IMG/VR virus record: IMGVR_UViG_3300025655_000154
Coordinates: 1-33,938 of that record
Length of the DNA stretch: 33,938 bases
Origin: a virus
Taxonomy: Duplodnaviria > Caudoviricetes
Reading direction: 5' to 3' (one strand)
The position numbers and the translations under genes are program-made. The notes beneath the pieces were generated by a model. That model was not told where the DNA came from and searched no databases. It saw only the letters and a program-made list of their open reading frames with translations. Each line of letters begins with the position of its first letter. Position 1 is the first letter of the stretch. Below are positions 8,485 to 31,726 of this stretch, piece after piece.

Positions 8485-10148
8485 TGGCACTATCAGAAAC
8501 ATTAAAAGATTTAACAGAAGGTATTTCTTCTTTGAGAAATCAAACCTATAAACTAGGTGATCGGTATATGCAAGGCGAAGATATCATGAAAGACGGTATG
8601 GATCTTCGTAATATGTTAAAAAATATGGATATTGAAATTACCAAATTAGAAGGTACTTCAAGAAAAGATAATCCGTCAGTTTATGATGTAGAAGTAGAAC
8701 AATATACTTCAGATGAAGCAGGTAAACTTAAAAATAGATTAGGTGAACTAATGAACGCTACGTCTGATTTTGACGAAGCTCCTGGAATGTTCGATGGTGG
8801 AATGCTGACAGGGGTTATCGGTGGACCTGTTGATGTAGAAAAACTTGACGAATCAAGAACAGTTCCAGGAATTATCAAAGAAACATATTCAGACCCCATG
8901 TTACGTTTAATATCAGGACAACGTGCAGGGTTTTATCCACAACTAGGTTTTGGTGCTGATCCTTATGAAAATGTATTTAAACGTGCTTTAGGAATTCCTG
9001 TTGCTGAAGCCCCTACAACACCACCACCTGATAGACCTCCGTACATACCACCACCTGATGGACCTCCTTTCAAAGACCCACGTGATGGAGATTTTTACGA
9101 TCCTAGAGACGATTATTTAAGAGATCGTTTTTTAGATTTTAGAGACGCTGACCTTTTTGATTTTACTCCTATTGGGACTCCTGATACACCAAAAGTTCCT
9201 ATGGATTTTGATCCTGCCGCATTTAGAGAAGATATATTATCAAACATACCTGCCTACGATCCTTCTGAATTAGAAAAAGGAATTGCAAGTTTACAAGAAC
9301 AAATAGGAAGTTTTAAACCGCCTACATTAGACATAGGTCAAATTACTAGAGATATTCAATCTCAACTTAAATTACCTCAAACTCCTCAAATAGATAGAGA
9401 AGCTCTTGTTAGAGATATTCAATCTAGCATAAAAATTCCTCAAGCTCCTCAAATAGATATTGAAGCTTTAAGATCAGATATTTTAAGATCTGTTCCACAA
9501 CAACAATTACCAGATGTTTCTAAATTTGTAACTCAATCTGATATCAATAAAGCTCTTGCTAATATACCTCAACCAGAACAATTAGATAGACAGGCTTTGA
9601 TTAGAGATATACAGTCGCAAATAAAAGTTCCTGAAAGATTTGATCCAACTGGTTTAGAATCTCAGATATCAGGTTTACAATCTCAAATACAAGGAATACC
9701 ACAATTTGATCCAACAAGTTTACAAGCAAGATTGGGTGGGCTAGAGCAACAATTAGCAAACATTCCGCAACCACAACAAATAGATATTGGAGCATTAAGA
9801 CAAGATATTTTATCTCGTGTTCCACAATTTGATCCCTCGTCTATTCAACAAGGATTAGCAAGTTTAGAATCTAGATTACAAAATATTCCCCAAGTAACTC
9901 CTAGAAGCGATGCGGAAATACAATCTTTAATAAACAGGTCTATTTCAAATATTCCTACTCCTCAAACACCTGATGTTTCAAGATTTATTACAGCAGATGA
10001 TTTAAGCAGAGGATTAGCTTCTATAAATATTCCTCAAGTAAATTTAGACCCAATTACAAGCAGATTGGCTCAACTAGAAAAACAATTAGCAGGTTTATCA
10101 ACACCTTCCGTTTCAATACCTAACTTTAGAAACTTTACTTTAGGATAA
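8484..10148 (+). CDS. Repeat-containing putative virion protein (Pro-rich linker, segmented helical repeats)
   Basis: PPPD repeats followed by roughly 19-22-aa units such as PQIDREALVRDIQSSIKI, PQFDPTSLQARL and PDVSKFVTQSDI. Confidence 0.6.
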   Translation: MALSETLKDLTEGISSLRNQTYKLGDRYMQGEDIMKDGMDLRNMLKNMDIEITKLEGTSRKDNPSVYDVEVEQYTSDEAGKLKNRLGELMNATSDFDEAPGMFDGGMLTGVIGGPVDVEKLDESRTVPGIIKETYSDPMLRLISGQRAGFYPQLGFGADPYENVFKRALGIPVAEAPTTPPPDRPPYIPPPDGPPFKDPRDGDFYDPRDDYLRDRFLDFRDADLFDFTPIGTPDTPKVPMDFDPAAFREDILSNIPAYDPSELEKGIASLQEQIGSFKPPTLDIGQITRDIQSQLKLPQTPQIDREALVRDIQSSIKIPQAPQIDIEALRSDILRSVPQQQLPDVSKFVTQSDINKALANIPQPEQLDRQALIRDIQSQIKVPERFDPTGLESQISGLQSQIQGIPQFDPTSLQARLGGLEQQLANIPQPQQIDIGALRQDILSRVPQFDPSSIQQGLASLESRLQNIPQVTPRSDAEIQSLINRSISNIPTPQTPDVSRFITADDLSRGLASINIPQVNLDPITSRLAQLEKQLAGLSTPSVSIPNFRNFTLG

Positions 10149-11579
10149 CCAAGCTTGAAAACCGTCTCCTAAGACTTGTTTTGCTAAATCGTGTTTCGCC
10201 CTTAAAGACTTTACTATCTTTTCATCAATAGTATCTTTGGTTGTAAGGTCATAATAAGTAACTTTATTTTCTTGACCTATTCTATGAGCACGGTCTTCAG
10301 ACTGTAATCTTTTTTCTAGATCAAAACTATTAGAATAATAAATTACGTTGTTAGCTTTAGTTAACGTAATACCATAACCAGCAGTCATTTGATTACCTAC
10401 GAAAAATCTAGGGTATTCGTTATCGGATTGGAATTCTTTAATCGCTGACTTTCTATGGTCTAGGTCTGTATCCCCATAATAACTAACTACACTTGCTCCA
10501 CCATACTCTTTTTGTAAAGCTTTGGTAATTTTTTCTATATTGTGAACATAGTTCGCCCATATGATAACTTTTCCATCCATATAAGAAATAAGTTCCATCA
10601 TAGCATCTATTCTATTATTATCTATATCTATAATTTCATCTTGATCGTTTCTTACAAAACCACAAATCATGGTATGTAATCTTAAAAGCTGTGTCATGAC
10701 AGAAGTTGCGGTAACAGTTTCTTGGTCTTTTAAGACTGCCATCGCATCTTTTTTCATTTCTTTATATAATTTATTTTGTTCAGGTGTTAATTCAACATAA
10801 TGTTTGTTATAAATTTTATCAGGTAAATCAAGGCATTCTTTCTTTAAAACTCTGAAACTATAGGCTTGTGTAAGCGTCTTTAGTTCGTGTAAGTTCCTAT
10901 ATCCTTTAACTTCACGAAAGCTATGAGACCCTATTGATCTTTGAATGATCTCTGCAAAGTGGTTTTGAAATGAATAATAAGATTGGAAACCTAATATGTG
11001 TGTATCAAGAAATTTGAACTGTGTGTAGAAGTCTAAAGGTGATCTTGTAATAGGAAAACCTGTAAGTATTCTACGAAACTTTGCATGTGCACTAATTTTT
11101 AATAAACTTTTTGTTCTATTAGCTTTTGGGTTTTTAATAGTTGTACTTTCATCTATAGCTATTAAAGAATTAGTAGACTGTAATAATTTTTCTGTAAAGA
11201 TGCGACCTTTCTCAGAAGAAAAAGCTTCAACGTTTATAACTAAGATTCTTAATTTATCTGTTTCCGTAAACAGTTTCATAAGAGCTTCTTGTTTTCTTTT
11301 AGTAGGTGAGGATTTCCAAAGTGTGGTATAGCACTCTACGTGGTCAGGCATGTGTGTAGGTAACTCTTTATCTATCCAGTTTAGATATACTCCTTTAGGT
11401 GCGATAATAACTGCGGTATTAATTGCCCCTCTATCGTAGAGAATAGCTATGTTATCTATAAGAACTTTAGATTTACCTGTACCCATTTCCATAAAAAATG
11501 CATATGCAGGCTTATTCCAACTTTGTTTTAAAGCCTCTAATTGATGTTCATAAGGTACTGTTTTAAACTTATATTTCAT
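10140..11579 (-). CDS. SNF2-family (SF2) helicase
   Basis: Motif I FMEMGTGKS, motif II IDEST, motif III LTGFP, C-terminal GITLT...QSEDRAHRIGQ. Confidence 0.92.
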   Translation of the reverse strand: MKYKFKTVPYEHQLEALKQSWNKPAYAFFMEMGTGKSKVLIDNIAILYDRGAINTAVIIAPKGVYLNWIDKELPTHMPDHVECYTTLWKSSPTKRKQEALMKLFTETDKLRILVINVEAFSSEKGRIFTEKLLQSTNSLIAIDESTTIKNPKANRTKSLLKISAHAKFRRILTGFPITRSPLDFYTQFKFLDTHILGFQSYYSFQNHFAEIIQRSIGSHSFREVKGYRNLHELKTLTQAYSFRVLKKECLDLPDKIYNKHYVELTPEQNKLYKEMKKDAMAVLKDQETVTATSVMTQLLRLHTMICGFVRNDQDEIIDIDNNRIDAMMELISYMDGKVIIWANYVHNIEKITKALQKEYGGASVVSYYGDTDLDHRKSAIKEFQSDNEYPRFFVGNQMTAGYGITLTKANNVIYYSNSFDLEKRLQSEDRAHRIGQENKVTYYDLTTKDTIDEKIVKSLRAKHDLAKQVLGDGFQAWLS

Positions 11580-13364: not shown

Positions 13365-14894
13365 ATGTCTTTAGCTCGAGATTATGCAAAACTTTTTGCT
13401 GGGCTAAAACAGGCGTATGGAAAGTTTACTCAAACTTCTGACCTTAGAGACGACGGTAAAGTTGGCGGAAAGGTTGTTACTGTATCAGAACAACTAACCG
13501 AAAACAGACTAAGGGAGCTTTGGCAACAGCACTTAGACGGTAAGACTTCGATAGGTATTGTTCCTATAGACGAAGATAATTGCTGTCAATGGGGTGCTAT
13601 AGACGTAGATGATTTTACGCTAGACCTTAAAGGTTTAGCTAAGAAACTACATAAACTAAAGCTTCCATTAGTTCTTTGTCGTAGTAAAAGCGGTGGAGCA
13701 CATATATTTCTGTTTGTTTTTGATCCAGTTCCTGCAATCATTATGCAGAGGAAACTAAAAGACATTGCCGCATGTCTTGGTTTTGGACAGGCAGAAATAT
13801 TCCCTAAACAAACTAAACTATTAATAGAAAGAGGGGATAAAGGAAGTGCTTTAAACATGCCATACTTCGGTGGAGAAGATTCTACTAGATATGGTTATGG
13901 AAACTCTGGAGTTGCTCTTACTCCAGAAGAATTTATAGAACTAGCTAATGAAAGAACTATAACTGCAAAAGAGCTAGAGGAGTATGTTATTGAAGCTTCG
14001 CAAGACGAAGAATGGCTAGACCAAGCTCCTCCCTGTTTACAACACCTAATTACACAAGGCTTTCCTAAAGGAACACGTAATTCAGGATTATTTAACGTAG
14101 GTGTATTCCTTAGAAAGAAATACGAAGATGATTGGGAACACCGTTTAGAACAAGTTAATATGAACTATATGTCACCACCGTTAGTGGCACAAGAAGTTTT
14201 AACAATAATAAAACAAGTTCAGAAAAAAGATTATTTCTATCGTTGTAACGATCAACCTATTGCAGGTCATTGTAATTCAACGGTATGTAGGACTAGAAAG
14301 TTTGGTATAGGGTCATCAGGTGGTACACCGCAGTTTAGTAACCTAACAAAACAAAACTCAGATCCACCGATATGGTTTTTAGATGTAGAAGGTGGAAGGT
14401 TAGAACTAGAAACAGACGACCTACTAAACCAAAACAGATTTCAAAGAAAGTGTATGGATGCACTCAATATAATTCCACCTAGAGTAAAAGATAATGTGTG
14501 GAGACAATTAATACAGCAGTTATTAGATAATTTAACTGTAATAGAAATGCCTGACGACGCTTCTAACGAAGGACACTTTAAAGAATTATTAGAAACTTTT
14601 TGCACAGAAAGACCTGCAAGAGAACGAGATGAGATATTATTACATAAGCCTTGGACTGATGCTTATAAAACCTATTTTAGAGTTAGTGATCTAGTTGATT
14701 ACTTAAATAGAAATGGGTTTAAAGAATATGCTAGAAACAAGATTACTTCTAAGTTAAGGCAAATGGGAGGTGGTGCACACTTCTTCAATATAAAAGGTAA
14801 AGGAACTAACGTTTGGTACGTTCCTGAGTTTGAAACACAAAACGAGGTATTTTCGATACCTAAAGACATAACGGATATAGACGAGGAAATATGA
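13365..14894 (+). CDS. Archaeo-eukaryotic-type (AEP) primase with PriCT-like domain
   Basis: Motif I WGAIDVDD, motif II RSKSGGAHIF, PPC...GTRNSGLF PriCT-like segment, Cys cluster YRCND...HCNSTVC. Confidence 0.8.
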   Translation: MSLARDYAKLFAGLKQAYGKFTQTSDLRDDGKVGGKVVTVSEQLTENRLRELWQQHLDGKTSIGIVPIDEDNCCQWGAIDVDDFTLDLKGLAKKLHKLKLPLVLCRSKSGGAHIFLFVFDPVPAIIMQRKLKDIAACLGFGQAEIFPKQTKLLIERGDKGSALNMPYFGGEDSTRYGYGNSGVALTPEEFIELANERTITAKELEEYVIEASQDEEWLDQAPPCLQHLITQGFPKGTRNSGLFNVGVFLRKKYEDDWEHRLEQVNMNYMSPPLVAQEVLTIIKQVQKKDYFYRCNDQPIAGHCNSTVCRTRKFGIGSSGGTPQFSNLTKQNSDPPIWFLDVEGGRLELETDDLLNQNRFQRKCMDALNIIPPRVKDNVWRQLIQQLLDNLTVIEMPDDASNEGHFKELLETFCTERPARERDEILLHKPWTDAYKTYFRVSDLVDYLNRNGFKEYARNKITSKLRQMGGGAHFFNIKGKGTNVWYVPEFETQNEVFSIPKDITDIDEEI

Positions 14895-15487
14895 TTAAGT
14901 TTATTAAAGGTGGCATGAAAGGTTTTGATCCTTTAATTTATGAATGGGATGAACCTGTAGTTAGAGAATATTGCGGTAAAACTATCTATGGTAGAAAAAC
15001 CAAAGGTTTCGGTGAAGAAAGTTTTGAGTATGCAGGGAAGTTCTACAACCCTTCTCCATGGACTCAGCCTATGAAATATATTAAATGGAATACAGAAAGC
15101 TTAGTAAAGGCACAGATAGGTAAAAAAGTAGATTTTAATTTTTGTTTATGTGGTTTATATGAGGAAGATGGAAAAGGTATCCCTCATCATTCAGATACTG
15201 TTCCTACGTTAGATGATATAGTTGTATCACTTTCTTTTGGTGCACCAAGAATATTTGAATGGAGAGAATACCATTACGATATTAAAAAAGAAACCAATAC
15301 TAGTGAAACATACATAGATTTAGAAGGAAACGCTACTATAACTCATTATCTGCTAGAAGACGGTGATGTACTTATATTTGATGGAGCTTCTCAGATGACA
15401 TCTACACACGCTGTATTAGATGTAGTAGGTGCTAGAGATAGAGTTAACTTGACATTTAGAACAGGAATTAATAATGTCAAACACTAG
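14891..15487 (+). CDS. AlkB-like 2OG-Fe(II) dioxygenase
   Basis: HxD (IPHHSD), VSLSFGAPRIF, distal His (STHAV) and RVNLTFR 2-oxoglutarate-binding motif. Confidence 0.88.
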   Translation: MIKFIKGGMKGFDPLIYEWDEPVVREYCGKTIYGRKTKGFGEESFEYAGKFYNPSPWTQPMKYIKWNTESLVKAQIGKKVDFNFCLCGLYEEDGKGIPHHSDTVPTLDDIVVSLSFGAPRIFEWREYHYDIKKETNTSETYIDLEGNATITHYLLEDGDVLIFDGASQMTSTHAVLDVVGARDRVNLTFRTGINNVKH

Positions 15488-15653
15488 AGAAGATTATATA
15501 AAAGTTGTTGTTAAGTGTGATAATGTAATGCATAAAAATCTAAACGATTTAAAGAAAGCAGCTAAAGAAAAAATATTAAAAGACGAAATAATGTGGGTAG
15601 AAGCTATATCGCCAGCACATAGAAGAAAAGAAAAAATATATGTTGCCGACTAA
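15474..15653 (+). CDS. Small hypothetical protein (59 aa)
   Basis: Read by hand: MSNTREDYIKVVVKCD...KIYVAD; AGGA upstream; overlaps both neighbours and fills the gap. Confidence 0.55.
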   Translation: MSNTREDYIKVVVKCDNVMHKNLNDLKKAAKEKILKDEIMWVEAISPAHRRKEKIYVAD

Positions 15654-17133
15654 AACTCAGGTGATTCTTGGACCTCCAGGAACAGGAAAAACATCTACAT
15701 TATTACAACTTATAGAAAACGAATTAGATAGCGGTGTTTCTCCTAACAAGATTGGTTTCTTTACGTTCACAAAAAGAGCGGTAAATGAGGGTGTTGAGAG
15801 AGCCATGAACAAGTTTTCATTAACTAAAAAAGATTTACCTTATTTTAAAACATTACATTCATTAAGTTTTCATCAGCTTGGATTAAACAAAGAAGATGTG
15901 TTTGAACGTACACATTTAATAGAGCTTAATGATAAATTAAATGTAAAACTTACAGGCTCGCAAAGTACAGAAGACGGAACTATTTACAGTATGACTAAAG
16001 ATGATAGGTTGATGTTTATAGATAACCTAGCAAGAATGAAGAAGTGTTCGCTTGAGGATTTATGGCATGATGTAGAAGACGCTGTGAATTGGTATGCACT
16101 TGATAGATTTAGTAGAGGGTATTCAGCTTATAAGAAAGCTAGACGGTTGTACGATTATACAGATATGTTGCAGTTCTTTTTAGAAAGAGGTTATGCACCA
16201 AAGCTCGATGCACTGTTTATAGATGAAGCACAAGACCTTAGTCCTTTACAGTGGGCGGTAGTTAGAAAGCTTATAGATAGTAGCCATAAAGTATATGTTG
16301 CAGGTGATGATGACCAAGCTATTTATAAGTGGGCAGGTGCAGATGTAGATTATTTAATTAGTAATTGCACGAATGCAACTGTATTAGAACAAAGCTACAG
16401 GATACCTAGCTCTATACACGAACTAGCGAGAAAGACTGTAGGTAGATTAACTAAGAGAGTAGCTAAATCTTGGAAACCTAAAGACGATACAGGCGTGGTT
16501 AGTTGGGAAAGAGGTTTTGAACATATAGATATGAGCGAAGGCTCATGGTTAGTTCTAGGTAGAACAAATTACATATTAGAAAACGTAATAGATCATTGTA
16601 AACACGAGGGTTGGTTTTTTGAGGTTAAAGGTAATCCTAGCGTTGCAGGAGTTAAGTTAGACGCTATTAGAAGTTGGGAACGTTTTAATAAAGGTGAGGA
16701 GCTTACACTACAGGAATGTGGAACGTTTTTAAGATATATAAAGAAAGTAGCTAAAAACCAATTAAAGTTATTTGAGGGAGATCTAAAAGTAGGTAGAACT
16801 CATGTAGAGGGTTTAGTAGGTGTATTGCCTAAAGGTAGGTGGTACGATTGCCTAGATATGATCTCTATAACAGAAAGAAGTTACCTACAAGCTATGCTAA
16901 GACGAGGAGAGAAAGTTTTAAAACAACCACGTATCCGTATATCTACTATTCATGCGGCAAAAGGAGCAGAGGCTGACAACGTAATACTGCTAACCGACAT
17001 GACACATAAAGTTTATAACAGTTATCAACGAGACCCTGACGATGAAACGAGAGTGTTTTACGTTGGTATGACAAGGGCAAAAAAGAGGCTTTACTTGATT
17101 GAACCTACATCAAGGAAATATTTCGACTTGTAA
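15640..17133 (+). CDS. UvrD/Rep-like SF1 helicase
   Basis: GPPGTGKT, IDEAQDLS, AGDDDQAIY, QSYR, STIHAAKGAEAD, YVGMTRAK. Confidence 0.93.
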   Translation: MLPTKTQVILGPPGTGKTSTLLQLIENELDSGVSPNKIGFFTFTKRAVNEGVERAMNKFSLTKKDLPYFKTLHSLSFHQLGLNKEDVFERTHLIELNDKLNVKLTGSQSTEDGTIYSMTKDDRLMFIDNLARMKKCSLEDLWHDVEDAVNWYALDRFSRGYSAYKKARRLYDYTDMLQFFLERGYAPKLDALFIDEAQDLSPLQWAVVRKLIDSSHKVYVAGDDDQAIYKWAGADVDYLISNCTNATVLEQSYRIPSSIHELARKTVGRLTKRVAKSWKPKDDTGVVSWERGFEHIDMSEGSWLVLGRTNYILENVIDHCKHEGWFFEVKGNPSVAGVKLDAIRSWERFNKGEELTLQECGTFLRYIKKVAKNQLKLFEGDLKVGRTHVEGLVGVLPKGRWYDCLDMISITERSYLQAMLRRGEKVLKQPRIRISTIHAAKGAEADNVILLTDMTHKVYNSYQRDPDDETRVFYVGMTRAKKRLYLIEPTSRKYFDL

Positions 17134-17156
17134 AGAGGTTTTTTGTCGTATATAAT
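17128..17156 (+). promoter_or_regulatory. Sigma70-type promoter of the DNA-modification cassette
   Basis: TTGTAA (17128-17133), 17-nt spacer, TATAAT (17151-17156); AGAAAGGAGAAA RBS at 17177-17188. Confidence 0.75.
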
Positions 17157-17191
17157 TTTTATTTTAAAAGTAAACAAGAAAGGAGAAACTT

Positions 17192-18031
17192 ATGCCAAGT
17201 ATAAGAAAAAAATTAACAGCTGAACAAAACCCTAACGATTGTAAAAATACAAGAATGGATATTGCTCATGCTGGAGTGTTCGCTAACTTTAGACCTGATG
17301 AAATAGCTCATATTTCTAGGTTTGAAAAAATAGCTTCATTTCTAATAGATGAATCTAAACGTCAAGGTAGACCGCTAGATACTTTAGAGATAGGTTGCGG
17401 ACAGTTGTGGGTGCTACGAACTTTATATAAGTCTTTTGTAGTTAAGAAATCTGATGTAGTTTCATCTTATTATGGTTACGATATCGACCCTGCCTCATTT
17501 GAAGAAATCAAATTTTGGGCAGGAGAAGGTGGTCATGTAAACGATACTACTTGGATTAAAAACTTTAACGCTACTTTAGAATTAAAAGACGTTAGTGTAG
17601 ATCCGACATTACCCCATAATAGCGAAACTATAGACGTAGCTTGGTCTACCGAAGTTATCGAGCATATGCCAAGAGAAGCTGTAGAGCCTTGGATTGCCGA
17701 GTTAAGTCGTGTGGTAAAAAGTGGTGGAACAGTATTTATCTCAACACCTAACCACGATGGCTCTAACGATAAACTTCCTGAAGACCATATCTACGAGTGG
17801 GGTTTCGAGGAACTAAAAGGGTTGCTTACTAGATACTTTAAACTTGAATCTGTAGTAGGTGTATTTACTCAAACTAAAAAGTTCCAGAAATCTCAAGACG
17901 CTAAACAAATATGGACTCCTGAACAGTTAGACATGTTGAAAGAAAGATATGGAAGACAGTTCTTAAGAGTTGTATTAGCGACTTTTTATCCAGAGACTTC
18001 TAACAACTGTTTTTGGAGATTAACTAAGTAA
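17192..18031 (+). CDS. Class I SAM-dependent methyltransferase
   Basis: Motif I LEIGCG, acidic GYDID, STEVIEHM, KSGGTVFISTPN; lacks the DPPY/PC motifs of DNA methyltransferases. Confidence 0.85.
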   Translation: MPSIRKKLTAEQNPNDCKNTRMDIAHAGVFANFRPDEIAHISRFEKIASFLIDESKRQGRPLDTLEIGCGQLWVLRTLYKSFVVKKSDVVSSYYGYDIDPASFEEIKFWAGEGGHVNDTTWIKNFNATLELKDVSVDPTLPHNSETIDVAWSTEVIEHMPREAVEPWIAELSRVVKSGGTVFISTPNHDGSNDKLPEDHIYEWGFEELKGLLTRYFKLESVVGVFTQTKKFQKSQDAKQIWTPEQLDMLKERYGRQFLRVVLATFYPETSNNCFWRLTK

Positions 18032-18900
18032 TGTTCATAGAGGAAGAACTAGATAGATATATCTATTGGATAGAGGAAAGAGAGAGGATCAGGACTAAAA
18101 AAGAAGAAGAAGGTCTTGATCCTCCTTGGACTGACGACAAGATATTACAGGAGTATAAGTTCTGTCAAGTCTTTAGGGATGACGATAGAACTAGTCGGTG
18201 GTTTATAGAGCATATGCGTGATCCATTAAGAATGTCTCCTGAAGTATTTATGGCTACTGTTATTTTCCGTTGGTTTAATTTAATCCAAACAGGAGAAACT
18301 ATTCTTAAATATGATTTGCATACTGATTGGGATCCAACGATTGCAGATGTACAAATAAGAAAACAAAACCAATGGATAACAGGTGCTTATGTAATTAAAA
18401 GTCCAGACGGATTAGATAAGTTGCAAGGTATTATCAGGTGTATTAATTACATGTGGTATAGAAAAGATGAAATACTAGAAGAAGTTTACAACCGCATGGA
18501 TTCTATGCAAAAGATGTGGGAGTATTTACGAGGTTTTCCATTTCAAGGTCCATTTATGGCTTATGAAATAGTAACTGATTTAAGTTTTACTATGTTTTTA
18601 AAAGACGCTACTGATAGGTTGACTTGGGCTAATGCAGGTCCAGGAGCAATGAGAGGTCTAAACAGACTGACAGGTAGACCATTAGATTTTAAAAAGAAGT
18701 CAAACGATTGGGTTGGAGAAATGAACGAACTTTACGAAATATGTAAGTTGAGATTATCTCCTAGTATATTAAAAAGTAACAGACATGCCTTTGAGTTACG
18801 AGAAATAGAAGGTGGTCTTTGTGAGTTCGATAAGTATTCTAGGATACTAAAAGGAGAAGGAAGAACAAGGAGTAAGTATGTACACAATAAAAGCGTATAA
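18031..18900 (+). CDS. aGPT-Pplase1 / 5-hmdU DNA kinase helical-domain family protein (thymidine hypermodification transferase)
   Basis: PPWTDDKILQEYKFCQVFRDDDRTS, FRWFN, GPFMAYEIVTDL, GPGAMRGL and LCEFDKY match this HhH-glycosylase-fold family as recalled. Confidence 0.8.
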   Translation: MFIEEELDRYIYWIEERERIRTKKEEEGLDPPWTDDKILQEYKFCQVFRDDDRTSRWFIEHMRDPLRMSPEVFMATVIFRWFNLIQTGETILKYDLHTDWDPTIADVQIRKQNQWITGAYVIKSPDGLDKLQGIIRCINYMWYRKDEILEEVYNRMDSMQKMWEYLRGFPFQGPFMAYEIVTDLSFTMFLKDATDRLTWANAGPGAMRGLNRLTGRPLDFKKKSNDWVGEMNELYEICKLRLSPSILKSNRHAFELREIEGGLCEFDKYSRILKGEGRTRSKYVHNKSV

Positions 18901-19876
18901 CGTAAACGATGCTTTTTACAAAGGTTTAGATCTTTTTGGCTCTAACATTAACTATAGAGAATATGAAAGCAGAAACGGTAGAGTGTGGGAACTAAAAGAC
19001 CCAATCACTATTAAATACATTAATCCACACCATAGAGTTTTATTTGATAAATGGAGAGATTGTAATCCTTTTTTCCATTTAGCTGAAGGCTTATGGATGT
19101 TAGCAGGTCGAGGAGATTTAGCTTCTATGGAGCATTACGTTCCTAGAATGTCTGAGTTTTCAGACGATGGAAAAAGTTTATGGGGTGCTTACGGTTATAG
19201 ATGGAGATGGATGTTTGGCACTGATCAACTAAAAACTATTATTAAGATGCTACAAAGAAATCCTGATGATAGACGTTGTGTATTACAGATGTGGGGTGCT
19301 GAACAAGACCTAAACCATTTAGACGGTAAAGGAAAAGACGTGCCTTGTAATACTCAAATTTATTTTAAGATTAGAGACGGTGCTTTACGTATGACCGTAA
19401 CTAATAGGTCTAATGATTTAATATGGGGTTGTTTCGGTGCTAACATGGTTCACTTCAGTATGCTTCATGAATACATGGCAAGTATGATCGGAGTAAAGCT
19501 TGGTGAATATTATCACTTTACTGACAACTTACATATCTATGTAGACTATCCAATATGGAGAGATAAAGTTTCTCAAATAGACACAGAGGTAGGTTTATAC
19601 TGTTATAGAAATGATGACGCTTACCCTGCAAATTTAGTTCCTTTGGTGCTTGAGCCTAGTACCTTTGACCAAGAAGTTAAAGATGTATTAGATCGTGTAG
19701 AAAAAGATAAAGGTTATTATCAAAATCCTTTTCTAGAGTATACAGCAATTCCTGTTATAAATGCTTGGGATCTTTGGAAGAAAGGAGACCTTAATTCAGC
19801 TAAAGATGTTGTTGAAAGCATCGAAGCACAGGATTGGAGGACAGCTTGTTTAAATTATTTACAGAGGAGAAGTTAA
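18878..19876 (+). CDS. Thymidylate synthase homologue, probably dUMP hydroxymethylase
   Basis: GAYGYR, DDRR, catalytic PC (DVPCN), RSNDLIWGCFGAN with the dUMP-selecting Asn, DNLHIY; adjacent to the aGPT-Pplase gene. Confidence 0.85.
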   Translation: MYTIKAYNVNDAFYKGLDLFGSNINYREYESRNGRVWELKDPITIKYINPHHRVLFDKWRDCNPFFHLAEGLWMLAGRGDLASMEHYVPRMSEFSDDGKSLWGAYGYRWRWMFGTDQLKTIIKMLQRNPDDRRCVLQMWGAEQDLNHLDGKGKDVPCNTQIYFKIRDGALRMTVTNRSNDLIWGCFGANMVHFSMLHEYMASMIGVKLGEYYHFTDNLHIYVDYPIWRDKVSQIDTEVGLYCYRNDDAYPANLVPLVLEPSTFDQEVKDVLDRVEKDKGYYQNPFLEYTAIPVINAWDLWKKGDLNSAKDVVESIEAQDWRTACLNYLQRRS

Positions 19877-20200
19877 ATGTCAAATAATTATAAATTAATA
19901 GAAGACTTAGCATGGGGCGATGTCGAAGTATTAAAAGAAGCAGAAAAGTCTTATGGCACAAGTTGGAAACAACGTGGTGGTATAGGTGCTTTTATGATGT
20001 TAGCACGTAAGTGGGATAGGTTAGAAAACCAAGTTAAAAAGAATGGTTACGATGTTTTCCTATCTGCCTTAGAAGACCAAAGAGCCGAAGGTATCTTAGA
20101 CGATATCCGAGACCTTAGACAATACTTACTGCTAGTAGAATCTCATTGCTTAGAACTAATAGCTATAGATAAGCTTGGAGACGAAGTAGAAAGTGATTAA
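19877..20200 (+). CDS. Nmad1/DUF1599-like all-alpha protein (putative dNTP pyrophosphatase)
   Basis: KSYGTSWKQRGGIG...RKWDRLEN...DDIRDLRQY pattern; last gene of the modification cassette. Confidence 0.6.
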   Translation: MSNNYKLIEDLAWGDVEVLKEAEKSYGTSWKQRGGIGAFMMLARKWDRLENQVKKNGYDVFLSALEDQRAEGILDDIRDLRQYLLLVESHCLELIAIDKLGDEVESD

Positions 20201-20236: not shown

Positions 20237-22096
20237 GTGAGTCTACAGACAACATTGTTCGATCCAAAAGCCGACTGGTCTGCACCTGAGACTTTACCTA
20301 ATCTATCTGGAGCAAAAGAATTCAGTATAGATTTAGAGACTCGTGACCCAAATTTGAGAACTAAAGGCTCAGGTTGGGCTAGAAAGGACGGAGAGATAAT
20401 CGGTGTTGCGGTAGCGTGGGAGAGTGGTAAAGCTTATTTACCATTCTCTCATCTTGGTGGTGGCAACCTAGATAAAGAAATAGTTTATCGGTGGTTACAA
20501 CGACAATTAAATTCTAATGCGACAAAAGTATTCCATAACGCTACCTATGATTTAGGTTGGTTAACCTCTGAGGGTTTTAGTATAAATGGAAGTATCGTAG
20601 ACACCTTAGTTGCCGCACCTTTATTAGACCAAGATTCTTTTTCATACTCTTTAGATAACTTAGGAGAGAAATATTGTAATGAAAAGAAAAATGAAAACTT
20701 ATTAGACGAAGCATTAAATTCATACGGATTAAAAGATAAAGGTGATATGTGGAAGTTACCTGCAAAGTATGTAGGGTTATATGCAGAACAAGATGCAGCA
20801 TTGACTTTACAACTTTGGAAAATATTAAAACAAAAAATAAAAGACGAAAACTTATCTCAGCCATTCCAAACTGAAATGGAAATAGTAAAACTTGTTATTG
20901 AGATGAGGATGAAAGGTGTAAAGGTTGACTTAGAAAAAGCAGAAAAGATTATGCGAGAGTTAACTGTAAAAGAACAAGCTATCTTATTAGAGATAAAACG
21001 GAACTATGGAGTTGAAGTAGATATATGGGCTAATGCTTCTATCCAAAAAGCTTTTGATAAAATTAATTTATATTACCCATATACAGAAAAAGGCTCACCA
21101 AGTTTTCAGGCTAACTGGTTAGAAAACCACGAACATGATTTACCTAAAGCTATTGCTCGTGCTCGTAAATATAACAAAGCAGGTGGCACGTTTATTAAGA
21201 AGATGATCTTCGACCACCAAGTTAACGGAAGGATACATGCTGAAGCCCATAGTTCACGTTCTGAAATAGGTGGAACTGTAACAGGTAGGTTTAGTTATTC
21301 TAACCCAAACCTACAACAAGTTCCAGCTAGAGACCCAGAGATTGGACCAATGATCAGATCTATCTTTGTTCCTGAGCAAGGAGAAGAGTGGTGCTGTTTT
21401 GATTACAGCCAACAAGAGCCAAGAATAACAGTTCATTATGCTCATCGCCTAAAGATGACTGGGGCTGATCAAGCTGTTAAAAGTTATTTAGAAGGTAACG
21501 CTGACTTTCACCAAATAGTTGCGGACATGGCAAATATACCTCGCAAACAAGCTAAAAATATAAACTTAGGACTTACCTATGGGATGGGCGTAAAGAAGCT
21601 TATAAACGAGCTAGGGGTATCTGAGGAAGAAGGTAACGAGCTACTATCTCAATACCATACTAAAGTTCCTTTTATAAAAGGGTTGATGGATTACTGCACT
21701 AAACTAGCATCCGATAGAGGGTATATAAAAACTCTAGGTGGGAGAAAGTCTAGATTCGATTTATGGGAGCCAAGCGGAACGTATAACGAAGTATCAGCTT
21801 TACCAATCGAAAAGGCTTTAGAAAAATATGGGGCGGATTTAAAAAGAGCCTACACCTATAAAGCATTAAACAGATTAATCCAAGGGTCAGCAGCAGATAT
21901 GACCAAGTTGGCTATGTTAGAAGTTCGTAAACAAGGAATAGTTCCGCTACTACAGGTTCACGATGAGTTAGATTTTTCTTTAGGTAGTGAAGAAGAAAAA
22001 CAAACCGTTAAAGAAGCCATGATAAACTGTGTTAATTTAAGTGTTCCGATGGAAGTTGATATGGAGATCGGAGCAAGTTGGGGGGAGATAAAATGA
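20237..22096 (+). CDS. polA: Family A DNA polymerase with 3'-5' exonuclease (Leu762 type)
   Basis: ExoI DLET, ExoII HNATYD, ExoIII YAEQDA; TGRFSYSNPNLQQ; motif A DYSQQEPR, motif B AKNINLGLTYG, motif C VHDE; GTG start. Confidence 0.96.
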   Translation: MSLQTTLFDPKADWSAPETLPNLSGAKEFSIDLETRDPNLRTKGSGWARKDGEIIGVAVAWESGKAYLPFSHLGGGNLDKEIVYRWLQRQLNSNATKVFHNATYDLGWLTSEGFSINGSIVDTLVAAPLLDQDSFSYSLDNLGEKYCNEKKNENLLDEALNSYGLKDKGDMWKLPAKYVGLYAEQDAALTLQLWKILKQKIKDENLSQPFQTEMEIVKLVIEMRMKGVKVDLEKAEKIMRELTVKEQAILLEIKRNYGVEVDIWANASIQKAFDKINLYYPYTEKGSPSFQANWLENHEHDLPKAIARARKYNKAGGTFIKKMIFDHQVNGRIHAEAHSSRSEIGGTVTGRFSYSNPNLQQVPARDPEIGPMIRSIFVPEQGEEWCCFDYSQQEPRITVHYAHRLKMTGADQAVKSYLEGNADFHQIVADMANIPRKQAKNINLGLTYGMGVKKLINELGVSEEEGNELLSQYHTKVPFIKGLMDYCTKLASDRGYIKTLGGRKSRFDLWEPSGTYNEVSALPIEKALEKYGADLKRAYTYKALNRLIQGSAADMTKLAMLEVRKQGIVPLLQVHDELDFSLGSEEEKQTVKEAMINCVNLSVPMEVDMEIGASWGEIK

Positions 22097-23041: not shown

Positions 23042-23073
23042 CGCTTTACTTTCTAAACGCTGTTATTTATATT
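23042..23073 (+). promoter_or_regulatory. Repeated phage promoter
   Basis: CGC-TTTACT-TT, 17 nt, TATATT; 5' hairpin GTTAGCTA/TAGCTGAC and AGAAAGGAGAAA RBS follow. Confidence 0.8.
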
Positions 23074-27957: not shown

Positions 27958-27989
27958 CGCTTTACTTTCTAGTAAATGTAACTTATATT
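27958..27989 (+). promoter_or_regulatory. Repeated phage promoter
   Basis: CGC-TTTACT-TT, 17 nt, TATATT; AGAAAGGAGAAA RBS follows. Confidence 0.8.
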
Positions 27990-28029: not shown

Positions 28030-28470
28030 ATGAAAGGATTACTTAACGGATACCTTATCGACCCTGTCGAACAAGAAGTTACATGGCGTAGTTTTAGTGA
28101 GTCGAAAATTAGAAACGTTATCGGTTGCGACTTACTCGAATTAGTTTATCTACATGACGAAAATCGCGTGATAGTTCTTGATGAAGAGGGGTTATTAAAA
28201 AACAATCAACGCTACTGGAAATACGGTGATATGAATAACGTCTTGAACAATGCTTTTGCAGGTAAAGGAATTATTTTAGGTTTCGATTTCGACAAAGGTG
28301 AATTTATTGATATTTGTCCAGATTTTCCTGACAAACAAACTGATTCAAACATAATTTTAGAATGTATTGAAAACACTTATACTGAAATTGAAGCTAAAGT
28401 TTCTTTTATTGAAGATGAAAATTACTCGGAAGAACCATTCTTCCAATTTGTTCCTATGGAGAATTTATAA
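28030..28470 (+). CDS. DUF3846-like protein
   Basis: YLIDP...IGCDLLELV...VLDEEGLL...FAGKGIILG pattern. Confidence 0.65.
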   Translation: MKGLLNGYLIDPVEQEVTWRSFSESKIRNVIGCDLLELVYLHDENRVIVLDEEGLLKNNQRYWKYGDMNNVLNNAFAGKGIILGFDFDKGEFIDICPDFPDKQTDSNIILECIENTYTEIEAKVSFIEDENYSEEPFFQFVPMENL

Positions 28471-28829
28471 TGGAAATTAAAAATATGCGAGGTGCATTCG
28501 GCTCAGATAAAATTGCAGACGATGTTATTCAGTGGGCGAGGGATTGTGGTTTGTTGTTACAACCGCAAACAGATCGTCAGTTTCTAAAACTTATCGAAGA
28601 AGTTGGCGAAACGATTAGTGCTTATAATCATCTAGCTCCAGGATCTTCGTTCGACGACAGCAAAGAACTTATCGATGGGTTAGGTGATTGTTTTGTCGTA
28701 TTAATAGTTATATGTGCACAGCTTGGTTGGCATCCGAACTGGGTTATTTCACAGGCTTACAATGAAATTAAAAATCGTAAAGGTCAAATGTTTAATGGTT
28801 ACTTCTTGAAGGAGAACGAAGATGAGTAA
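28470..28829 (+). CDS. MazG-like nucleotide pyrophosphohydrolase
   Basis: QFLKLIEEVGE...IDGLGDCFVVL...AYNEIKNRKG (EExxE...D metal motif). Confidence 0.85.
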   Translation: MEIKNMRGAFGSDKIADDVIQWARDCGLLLQPQTDRQFLKLIEEVGETISAYNHLAPGSSFDDSKELIDGLGDCFVVLIVICAQLGWHPNWVISQAYNEIKNRKGQMFNGYFLKENEDE

Positions 28830-30965: not shown

Positions 30966-31229
30966 GTGATTATAGTTATTTACGAAATACGTGACGGTGA
31001 ACACGAATACGAGTCTATCGACTATTTTAGAGATAAAAATATATCCGATTATCGAGAAGGTAAAATTACCGATTTAGATTTATTAAACGAAAAATATGGT
31101 ATAGAAGCCAGTGACCGTGATAATGAAGATAGTAGTTGGTATTGGATGGGTGGTCTTAGAACAGTTCAAGTTTATAGTGTTCAAGAAATTACAGAAGAAG
31201 AATTAGATATCGTTTCGAGGTTTATATGA
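30966..31229 (+). CDS. Acidic hypothetical protein
   Basis: AGAAAGGAGAAA RBS, GTG start. Confidence 0.7.
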   Translation: MIIVIYEIRDGEHEYESIDYFRDKNISDYREGKITDLDLLNEKYGIEASDRDNEDSSWYWMGGLRTVQVYSVQEITEEELDIVSRFI

Positions 31230-31726
31230 ATATATTTGTATTAAACGAAGATCCAATCCAAGCTGCAAAAGACCAATGCGATAAGCATGTAGTTAAAATG
31301 ATATTAGAAACAGCTCAGATGTTATCGACTACTCAGCGTTGGTTTTACGAAGACGATTATTGTAATAGAGTTGGTTATTATAAGATTGCTCATATTAACC
31401 ACCCTTGTACGATTTGGGCTAGGACAGATGCTAGTAATTACCAATGGTTATACGAACATTTTGTAGCGTTATGTGATGAATATACGAAACGCTATGGCAA
31501 AGTCCATTTAACCGATACTAAGTTGCGAGATAAGCTATCTTACATTCCTGGAGATATGCCAAGTTCTTATCCAAATAAGACAACACCATTTGCCCAAGCT
31601 ATGCCTGACGAATATAAAGATCCAACCGATGCAGTTAAAGCATATCGGAACTATTACATTGGCGAGAAGTCAGGGTTTGCTAAATGGGAGTATACCGACC
31701 CTCCTGAATGGTTCGTTGCCAGTTGA
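31226..31726 (+). CDS. Pyrimidine-dimer DNA glycosylase/endonuclease V-like family protein
   Basis: MNIFVL...CDKHVVKMILETAQMLST, HINHPCTIWAR, EYTKRYGKVH, FAQAMPDEYK, AYRNYY. Confidence 0.75.
   Translation: MNIFVLNEDPIQAAKDQCDKHVVKMILETAQMLSTTQRWFYEDDYCNRVGYYKIAHINHPCTIWARTDASNYQWLYEHFVALCDEYTKRYGKVHLTDTKLRDKLSYIPGDMPSSYPNKTTPFAQAMPDEYKDPTDAVKAYRNYYIGEKSGFAKWEYTDPPEWFVAS

Follow-up and report, generated by a model that had tools for sequence, protein, structure and literature searches.

A predicted kinase-free thymidine hypermodification cassette with a methyltransferase in a marine phage clade

Characterised thymidine hypermodification in phages runs via 5-phosphomethyldeoxyuridine (5-PmdU) made by a DNA kinase, and attachment of an amine or amino acid has been shown for clade 2 aGPT-Pplases only (PMC8989533). 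In phage M6, the kinase gp54 and the glycine transferase gp51 are enough to give the glycinyl product when gp55 is absent, and SP10 gp186 has a kinase domain that works by itself (PMC8989533). The clusters of Pseudomonas phages M6/YuA and PaMx11 (PMC5889632, PMC8989533) carry a thymidylate synthase homologue (TS) of the dUMP-hydroxymethylase type and a clade 1 aGPT-Pplase (Pplase1) by the DNA polymerase gene polA, and HTVC023P-type podoviruses of clades V, VIII and IX carry a TS and an aG/PT-PPlase1 beside polA (PMC9599517). Such a pair was found in the window analysed here, a stretch of 33,938 nucleotides from the Caudoviricetes virus record IMGVR_UViG_3300025655_000154 that is a fragment, corresponding to positions 431-34369 of a 48-kb IMG/VR record from the same phage. 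Unlike the M6/YuA and PaMx11 clusters, the cassette in question has no DNA kinase for 5-hydroxymethyldeoxyuridine (5-hmdU), or 5-HMUDK, and no clade 2 transferase, and a class I S-adenosylmethionine (SAM)-dependent methyltransferase (MT) stands in the kinase's position. It is real and conserved, and is predicted to be a variant of phage pyrimidine hypermodification outside the kinase-dependent pathway.

Four genes, all on the + strand, make up the cassette, which lies between a UvrD-type helicase gene (15640..17133, +; Pfam) and polA (family A DNA polymerase; 20237..22096, +; Pfam; 36% identity to the M6 polymerase). The MT (279 aa; 17192..18031, +), a predicted hydroxyl O-methyltransferase with a Hen1-type metal set, matched Pfam Methyltransf_23 at E 5.8e-11. 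Pplase1 (289 aa; 18031..18900, +) matched PF18723 over residues 7-274 at E 3.8e-44 (151.6 bits against a cut-off of 25). The TS (332 aa; 18878..19876, +), which carries a dUMP hydroxymethylase signature, matched Thymidylat_synt at E 5.8e-23, and the last gene (19877..20200, +) encodes a Nmad1/DUF1599-like protein of 107 aa, a putative dTTP/dUTP pyrophosphatase recognised by its likeness to Pam3 gp54. MT and Pplase1 are coupled by a TAA/ATG overlap at 18031, Pplase1 and TS by a 23-nt overlap (18878-18900), and TS and the 107-aa gene by a TAA directly followed by ATG (19876/19877). A preliminary description, made from the window's letters alone, had named four coupled genes between helicase and polA, with an aGPT-Pplase1-type gene among them; open reading frame (ORF) coordinates, overlaps and Pfam matches bore this out, and profile searches confirmed three of the proteins and left the 107-aa protein without a family. 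A promoter of the cassette's own had also been claimed. The sigma70-like candidate (TTGTAA-17-TATAAT; 17128..17156, +; scoring 10/12) overlaps the helicase stop codon, and both hexamers were kept, with varying spacers, in the six closest loci (L001, L002, L003, L005, L007, L008). The region contains fewer promoter-like sites than random sequence would give (23 against an expected 42), so that support for the candidate comes from this conservation and not from the site itself. A Shine-Dalgarno-like AAGGAG lies upstream of the MT (17180..17185, +; recognised by sequence), with a similar element in most relatives that have no inserted gene. Two RNA runs yielded just 151-175-nt pieces at depth 2-7 and were uninformative on cassette expression.

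IMG/VR was searched with the Pplase1 protein (best 80 of 149 related stretches kept) and with an MT alignment (best 80 of 279 stretches kept, overlapping the Pplase1-anchored set). The order MT, Pplase1, TS and 107-aa gene was present in 76 of the 80 Pplase1-anchored loci; the four misses were at contig ends, with three contigs starting in or just before Pplase1 and one ending inside TS. Gene order in the MT-alignment set was identical, and polA was downstream of the cassette in 79 of the 80 loci. An independent copy of the cassette was carried by a contig of unrecorded type from an unrelated run; it covers 16900-20139 and shows 58 differences over 3240 bases. No pyridoxal phosphate-type, radical SAM, Nmad5, HD or dCMP deaminase homologue was found in the cassette neighbourhood. 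An MT of 85% identity, with the same upstream genes, was observed on a 5-kb contig (L260) binned in a Maricaulis metagenome-assembled genome; this is probably a phage contig and gives a weak hint of the host.

The preliminary description had seen no P-loop 5-hmdU kinase in the window, and this held: by regular expression, the sole Walker-A match in a real window ORF was the UvrD-type helicase, and a SNF2 helicase (10140-11579, -), the sole large window gene on the minus strand, has a variant of the motif. Because the window is only a fragment, kinase absence was then checked in near-complete relatives. Neither PF18748 (kinase) nor PF18724 (clade 2 transferase) had a match at E<=1 among 24 clade records, of which 17 were at least 90% complete; both found the M6 positive control (PF18724 at 2e-48). 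PF18748 is moderately sensitive, scoring PaMx11-type kinases at E 1e-4 to 1e-5, so a broader profile was built from nine phage kinases. It recovered M6 and Pam3 at about 1e-25 and matched 0 of 26 virus records at E<=1 (24 records that carry the MT and have a completeness of at least 90%, one of them with terminal repeats; one 79% record; and phiJL001). A Pfam scan of 63 ORFs of a close relative (G002, 99% complete) found no kinase, many of its small ORFs being without a family. Six whole records held no P-loop ORFs beyond helicase-type and chance matches, and no conserved kinase-like neighbour of the cassette was found. A deoxynucleoside monophosphate (dNMP) kinase was not found in the uracil-type (U-type) genomes by a search that is insensitive (phage AXL3's kinase scored just E 0.003).

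By published residue rules, an acidic residue at ThyA L143 marks a hydroxymethylase, Asn at D169 a 5-hydroxylase, and N177 dUMP specificity (PMC13326640). The TS has D154, C157, D180 and N189, and the D/D/N signature was present in 71 of 71 distinct clade sequences; on these rules the TS is strongly predicted to make 5-hydroxymethyl-dUMP (5-hm-dUMP). A 5-hydroxy-dCMP synthase would have Asn at D169 and Asp at N177, where the TS has D180 and N189. It is 41% identical to M6 gp58, and its best PDB match was the CMP hydroxymethylase MilA (E 2e-23), against 5e-15 for the best thymidylate synthase. The dUMP hydroxymethylase first proposed for this gene is upheld by signature and identity, and the signature speaks against a dTMP maker, one part of a case that had been named as refuting the modified-base proposal. 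The 107-aa protein shares 42% identity with Pam3 gp54, which bears the annotation 'nucleotide modification', and its first ESM Atlas cluster (score 0.97) includes DUF1599 in 11% of members; it had no Pfam, NCBIfam or PDB match, and no Pfam match at E<=1 when 8 relatives were included. Nmad1 has a MazG-like fold. From the gene's position and the dTTPase/dUTPase of the dapT pathway (PMC13458397), the 107-aa protein may be a dTTP/dUTP pyrophosphatase.

The MT contains four putative metal ligands, E154/E157/H158/H199, in columns that are invariant and that align exactly with E132/E135/H136/H181 of human HENMT1 (4xcx), which are Mg ligands (PMC10781085). Of the close homologues, 117 of 120 have the set, as do all 30 long forms and 152 of 161 distant-branch ORFs. 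With the MT family profile, Hen1 enzymes were among the best solved relatives (E 4.5e-6), the best being an uncharacterised methyltransferase (E 6.8e-7). The MT model (predicted local distance difference test score, pLDDT, 85) has the class I fold. It shares this fold and the register of its ligands with the Hen1/HENMT1 2'-O-methyltransferases of small RNAs, and differs in having no Pnkp partner (none among cassette neighbours or in the G002 scan), no N-terminal Hen1 domain and scores below family cut-offs; fold searches did not set Hen1 apart from other class I enzymes. The preliminary label of a small-molecule-type methyltransferase is too generic, given the Hen1 metal ligands and a phage family linked to hydroxymethylases. 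A Hen1-Pnkp-like pair, with both members under NCBIfam cut-offs, was seen in a 224-kb virus record (L115, 9254-14975).

Pplase1 is an orthologue of M6 gp55 (34% identity over 295 aa) and has no similarity to gp54. Although PF18723 is now named HMUDK_hel in Pfam ('5-hmdU DNA kinase, helical domain'), the idea that the 289-aa protein is the kinase was rejected: in M6, gp55 is the PF18723 protein, the kinase gp54 belongs to PF18748 and gp51 to PF18724, and the kinase domain of SP10 gp186 suffices. The name aGPT-Pplase reportedly goes back to Iyer et al. in 2013. Amine or amino acid attachment, which the preliminary description gave for aGPT-Pplase proteins in general, is not supported for clade 1, M6 gp55 being dispensable for the glycinyl product (PMC8989533). 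E260 and C264 are invariant in the clade and present in 145 and 149 of 150 Pplase1 representatives. C264 was likened to the clade 2 catalytic Cys by motif; when profiles were compared with M6 gp51, it stayed unaligned. At position 261, 80 of 80 clade loci have Gly and 140 of the 150 representatives have His, and position 46 is Gln in the clade and Asn in 140 of the 150. No solved relative was found by sequence, and Foldseek returned none at E<=0.001. The model (pLDDT 88) has a helix-hairpin-helix (HhH)-glycosylase-like fold with weak structural matches to HhH glycosylases and a weak match to PaMx11 gp46 (Z 8.7, root-mean-square deviation (rmsd) 4.5, 209 aligned). A two-cysteine redox mechanism was dropped, C45 being Thr in 70 of the 150 representatives, and an MT-Pplase1 fusion was found neither among 20 long Pplase1 representatives nor among 30 long MT homologues.

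A search with a diverse Pplase1 alignment (best 80 of 572 stretches kept) gave loci of which 60 had the MT, 9 a recognisable kinase and none both. Pplase1 and TS make up the core, and what accompanies it differs: a kinase with a transferase, a glycosyltransferase, or the MT. A TAGT glycosyltransferase was paired with Pplase1-TS in L510, L516, L518 and L519, and the gene order of L510 is that of the cultured Alphaproteobacteria phage phiJL001 (gp19 Pplase1, gp22 glucosyltransferase, gp24 synthase), in whose record neither PF18748 nor the nine-kinase profile found a kinase. phiJL001 shares the kinase-less Pplase1 and hydroxymethylase core with the window phage and differs in the partner. These loci (phiJL001 as L525, gp19-gp25, with L510, L516, L518 and L519), each with a kinase-less Pplase1, a TAGT glycosyltransferase and a dUMP-type hydroxymethylase, are candidates for a base-J-like glucosyl-hydroxymethyluracil in a cultured phage; no literature report on the phiJL001 base was found. 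Two further loci pair Pplase1-TS with an unassigned protein and a radical SAM enzyme (L446, 5665-10531, and L455: Pplase1, a 346-aa protein, a radical SAM/SPASM enzyme, a cytidylyltransferase-cupin fusion and TS, in partial records without a kinase). A second methyltransferase family occupies the slot in L494 (5971-9615), with Pplase1, TS, an FkbM-type methyltransferase, an HD hydrolase and no kinase nearby.

Among cultured or annotated phages, MT homologues were found in only 5 records, all in a second cassette type that comprises MT, a nucleoside triphosphate (NTP) pyrophosphatase, a dNMP kinase, TS and dCMP deaminase (AXL3, PW916 and two Manatee Spring phages). For AXL3, identity to the MT was about 24-28%, with the family motifs in common. 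The TS adjoins the MT in 31 of 32 second-cassette loci and has Asp at the ThyA N177 position (dCMP type); the dCMP-hydroxymethylase signature D/D/D was present in 84 of 93 distinct sequences, with 9 off pattern. The cassette of Stenotrophomonas phage AXL3 (gp27-gp31; PMC7504290) resembles that of the window in the MT family, found next to a hydroxymethylase-signature synthase and an NTP pyrophosphatase (putative in the window), and differs in its dCMP-type synthase, its own dNMP kinase, its dCMP deaminase and the absence of a Pplase. AXL3 DNA is nuclease-resistant: none of the 35 enzymes tested whose sites contain G/C could cut it, and cleavage was confined to enzymes whose sites consist of A/T throughout. 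The AXL3 authors read the cassette genes as dTTP supply (PMC7504290). In a wider MT set (78 viral and 45 metagenome loci, overlapping sets, after 36 short loci were dropped), a TS lay within 7 kb of the MT in 58 viral and 34 metagenome loci, a C5-methyltransferase-like gene was present in 16 and 13, and Pplase1 in 1 and 1; the 5-hmdU kinase and clade 2 transferase were found in none. Genome-wide, Pplase1 was present in 1 of 22 near-complete genomes of this distant (cytosine) branch, and TS in 11 of 17 distant-branch records, including 5 of 5 near-complete ones. In the MT tree the U-type sequences stand apart from the other branch, with long branches and support open.

Of 30 long MT homologues, 28 were fused to an N-terminal PF00145 C5 DNA-methyltransferase-like domain with its PPC motif intact and motif I altered (ESV for ENV). 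No match to the C5-methyltransferase domain was found in 8 U-type genomes. The fusions (P0271-P0300; L269, L270, L273, L313, L343, L350) occur in phages that also carry the dCMP-hydroxymethylase cassette. Further observations were made in this branch. The dNMP kinase of the cytosine cassette has a C-terminal extra domain, uracil-DNA glycosylase-like by eye (AXL3, L139, 8851-12885; L142-L172, L261-L265), and some loci have a DUF1599-like gene in its place. A divergent Pplase1 lies beside MT and an Asp-type TS in L336 (4551-10709), L407 and L395, and the L336 MT has an insertion resembling an intein or homing endonuclease by eye.

The product of the window cassette is likely an uncharacterised base, as the preliminary description had proposed, and the O-methyl option listed there is the favoured one: with a probability of roughly one in two, the MT O-methylates the 5-hydroxymethyl group of 5-hydroxymethyluracil (hmU), giving 5-methoxymethyl-dU without phosphorylation. 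The hydroxymethyl group is the predicted target because the MT family accompanies both dUMP- and dCMP-type hydroxymethylases, and hmU and 5-hydroxymethylcytosine (hmC) share that group. No kinase would be required, since the slot beside Pplase1-TS can hold enzymes that substitute the hydroxyl directly. Because the MT usually occurs without Pplase1, and Pplase1 stays with the dUMP hydroxymethylase whatever the partner, O-methylation is the simplest reading, and Pplase1 is probably not the transferase for the MT product. In this scheme, TS would convert dUMP to 5-hm-dUMP, the Nmad1-like protein might remove dTTP and dUTP, and host kinases, by analogy with M6, would make 5-hm-dUTP for polA, so that hmU would replace thymine in newly made phage DNA and be O-methylated in part. 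The MT would bind Mg or Mn via E154/E157/H158/H199 and use SAM to methylate the 5-CH2OH oxygen, with DNA a more probable substrate than the nucleotide. The C5-domain fusions point to DNA, as does the lack of a dNMP kinase in U-type genomes, the latter a weak test. Pplase1 would belong to the core hmU module and not to the methylation step, and might, as a guess, handle remaining hmU via a C264 thiolate, for example to thymine. The purpose, by analogy, may be protection from host nucleases.

A wider joint claim is tentative and falls a little short of even odds: a phage-wide family of metal-dependent hydroxymethylpyrimidine O-methyltransferases would yield two natural DNA bases that are new to the literature, 5-methoxymethyluracil in this clade of abundant marine podoviruses and, in AXL3-like phages, 5-methoxymethylcytosine, as a kinase-free third branch of pyrimidine hypermodification in which Pplase1 would turn hmU to thymine.

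Several observations weigh against O-methylation of hmU. Foldseek's listed matches for the MT were small-molecule methyltransferases, and HEN1 (3htx) ranked 12th by VIA-align (Z 16.3, rmsd 3.2, 188 aligned, against 17.5 for the top). UbiG also has ExxEH and was the sole NCBIfam match of the window MT (E 2.6e-4); the window MT had no TIGR04074 match, and the AXL3 homologue reached 28 bits against a cut-off of 340. Hen1 chelates a ribose diol and hmU has no such diol. A pI of 5.9 does not mark the MT clearly as a DNA-binding protein. Of the 78 viral loci of the distant branch, 20 had no synthase within 7 kb, and 6 of 17 records, all partial, had no TS. The translational coupling and fixed adjacency of MT and Pplase1 count in the same direction and, with the clade-specific Gly261 and Gln46, could reflect co-adaptation of Pplase1 with the MT, against which L484 and L487 weigh by pairing the MT with a His-type Pplase1.

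That coupling favours a different account, which is unlikely though not negligible, in which Pplase1 activates unphosphorylated hmU via a C6 thiolate and attaches a nucleophile made or methylated by the MT; equally unlikely is its product, a larger undescribed base with a methylated amine, thiol or SAM-derived group. The MT occupies the place that the kinase has in M6, PaMx11 and Pam3, the Glu and Cys of the active-site motif of clade 2 are retained in Pplase1 (PMC11472151), and the H261G and N46Q changes are specific to the clade. In the cytosine branch the MT is joined to, or lies next to, a further enzyme of the C6-thiolate type, the C5-methyltransferase-like protein with altered motif I, and CmoA/CmoX is a precedent for a methyltransferase homologue that makes a donor (PMC12783734). 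The CmoA/CmoX/CmoY carboxymethylcytosine system likewise reuses an RNA-modification methyltransferase homologue and adds a C5-methyltransferase homologue (PMC12783734); the window clade, by contrast, has no CmoA-type gene and, in the 8 U-type genomes, no C5-methyltransferase gene, and its handle is hydroxymethyl. Set against this account, most near-complete cytosine-branch genomes have MT and TS without Pplase1 or the C5 domain, Pplase1 accompanies TS whatever the partner, and hydroxide is, by general chemistry, a poor leaving group.

Rather improbable is an MT whose target is not a base but the end of an RNA or DNA molecule, or else a protein, sugar or metabolite, with virion DNA that contains hmU and/or Pplase1-made T. 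Hen1, the nearest characterised relative by profile, methylates the RNA 3'-terminal ribose, the MT fold matches many small-molecule methyltransferases equally, and some distant homologues have terminase genes as neighbours and are remote from TS. Against this, phages unrelated to one another link the MT almost universally to pyrimidine hydroxymethylases of either specificity, members of its family are fused to a DNA C5-methyltransferase-like domain, and it lacks a Pnkp partner like that of the viral Hen1 in L115.

It is very improbable that an undetected divergent kinase, or a host kinase, makes 5-PmdU, on which Pplase1 installs a known or near-known base that the MT tailors. The modest PF18748 scores of PaMx11-type kinases and the many small ORFs without a family in G002 leave room for such a kinase, and in SP10 the kinase is fused to Pplase1 and a clade 2 gene is absent (PMC5889632, Table 3). 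The nine-kinase profile nevertheless found nothing in its 26 records, the six whole records and the cassette neighbours offered no candidate, and a kinase-less Pplase1-TS pair also occurs in phiJL001. That the TS makes dTMP, or 5-hydroxy-dUMP and hence 5-methoxy-dU, instead of 5-hm-dUMP is scarcely credible: the Pfam and NCBIfam names are 'thymidylate synthase' and a metal-chelating enzyme would be well placed to O-methylate a 5-hydroxy-pyrimidine, but the acidic residue at ThyA L143 and the Asp at D169 in all 71 sequences indicate neither ThyA nor a 5-hydroxylase (PMC13326640), and the closest relatives are the M6 and Pam3 enzymes and MilA.

By gene content (ejection proteins, SNF2 helicase, primase, UvrD helicase, polA and small terminase) the window is podovirus-like, and with PMC9599517 its phage probably belongs to the HTVC023P-type group; no cultured member of that group was among the tblastn matches listed. 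As the synthase-Pplase1 pair has been published for HTVC023P-type phages (PMC9599517), the cassette is new only in the MT and the missing kinase, which were not found in print. PMC9599517 assumes an M6-like pathway, in contrast to the kinase-free arrangement with an MT here, and its main text mentions neither a methyltransferase ('methyl' is absent) nor a missing kinase. In the literature covered, with supplements and Iyer et al. 2013 outside its scope, nothing relevant was found on the MT link or on a phage base of the methoxymethyl type. New base chemistry is suggested by a large marine clade of phages in which hydroxymethylase and Pplase1 are retained and an MT replaces kinase and transferase, and the cassette offers a clean system for the function of clade 1 aGPT-Pplases and for the conversion of hmU to thymine in DNA, a step called unknown in PMC5889632. 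As the MT family also occurs in cultured AXL3 with a cytosine-side modification, the chemistry is testable on virion DNA; an hmU/hmC O-methyltransferase, if confirmed, would serve as a labelling tool.

Among neighbouring genes, an AlkB-like 2-oxoglutarate-Fe(II) oxygenase (14891-15487, +) lies between primase and helicase; it was rejected as a cassette member, being found in just 43 of 80 related loci. A MazG-like pyrophosphatase (28470-28829, +) lies outside the cassette and was present in a minority of related loci. A 166-aa protein (31226-31726, +), here 11 kb downstream, is encoded directly upstream of the MT in many relatives, and one member of its cluster matches Pfam Pyr_excise. A recurring TTTACTTT-type promoter element occurs at 23045-23073 and 27961-27989 of the window and upstream of the MT in L011-L091; upstream of the cassette it belongs, in many relatives, to an inverted repeat, TTTACTTT...AAAGTAAA.

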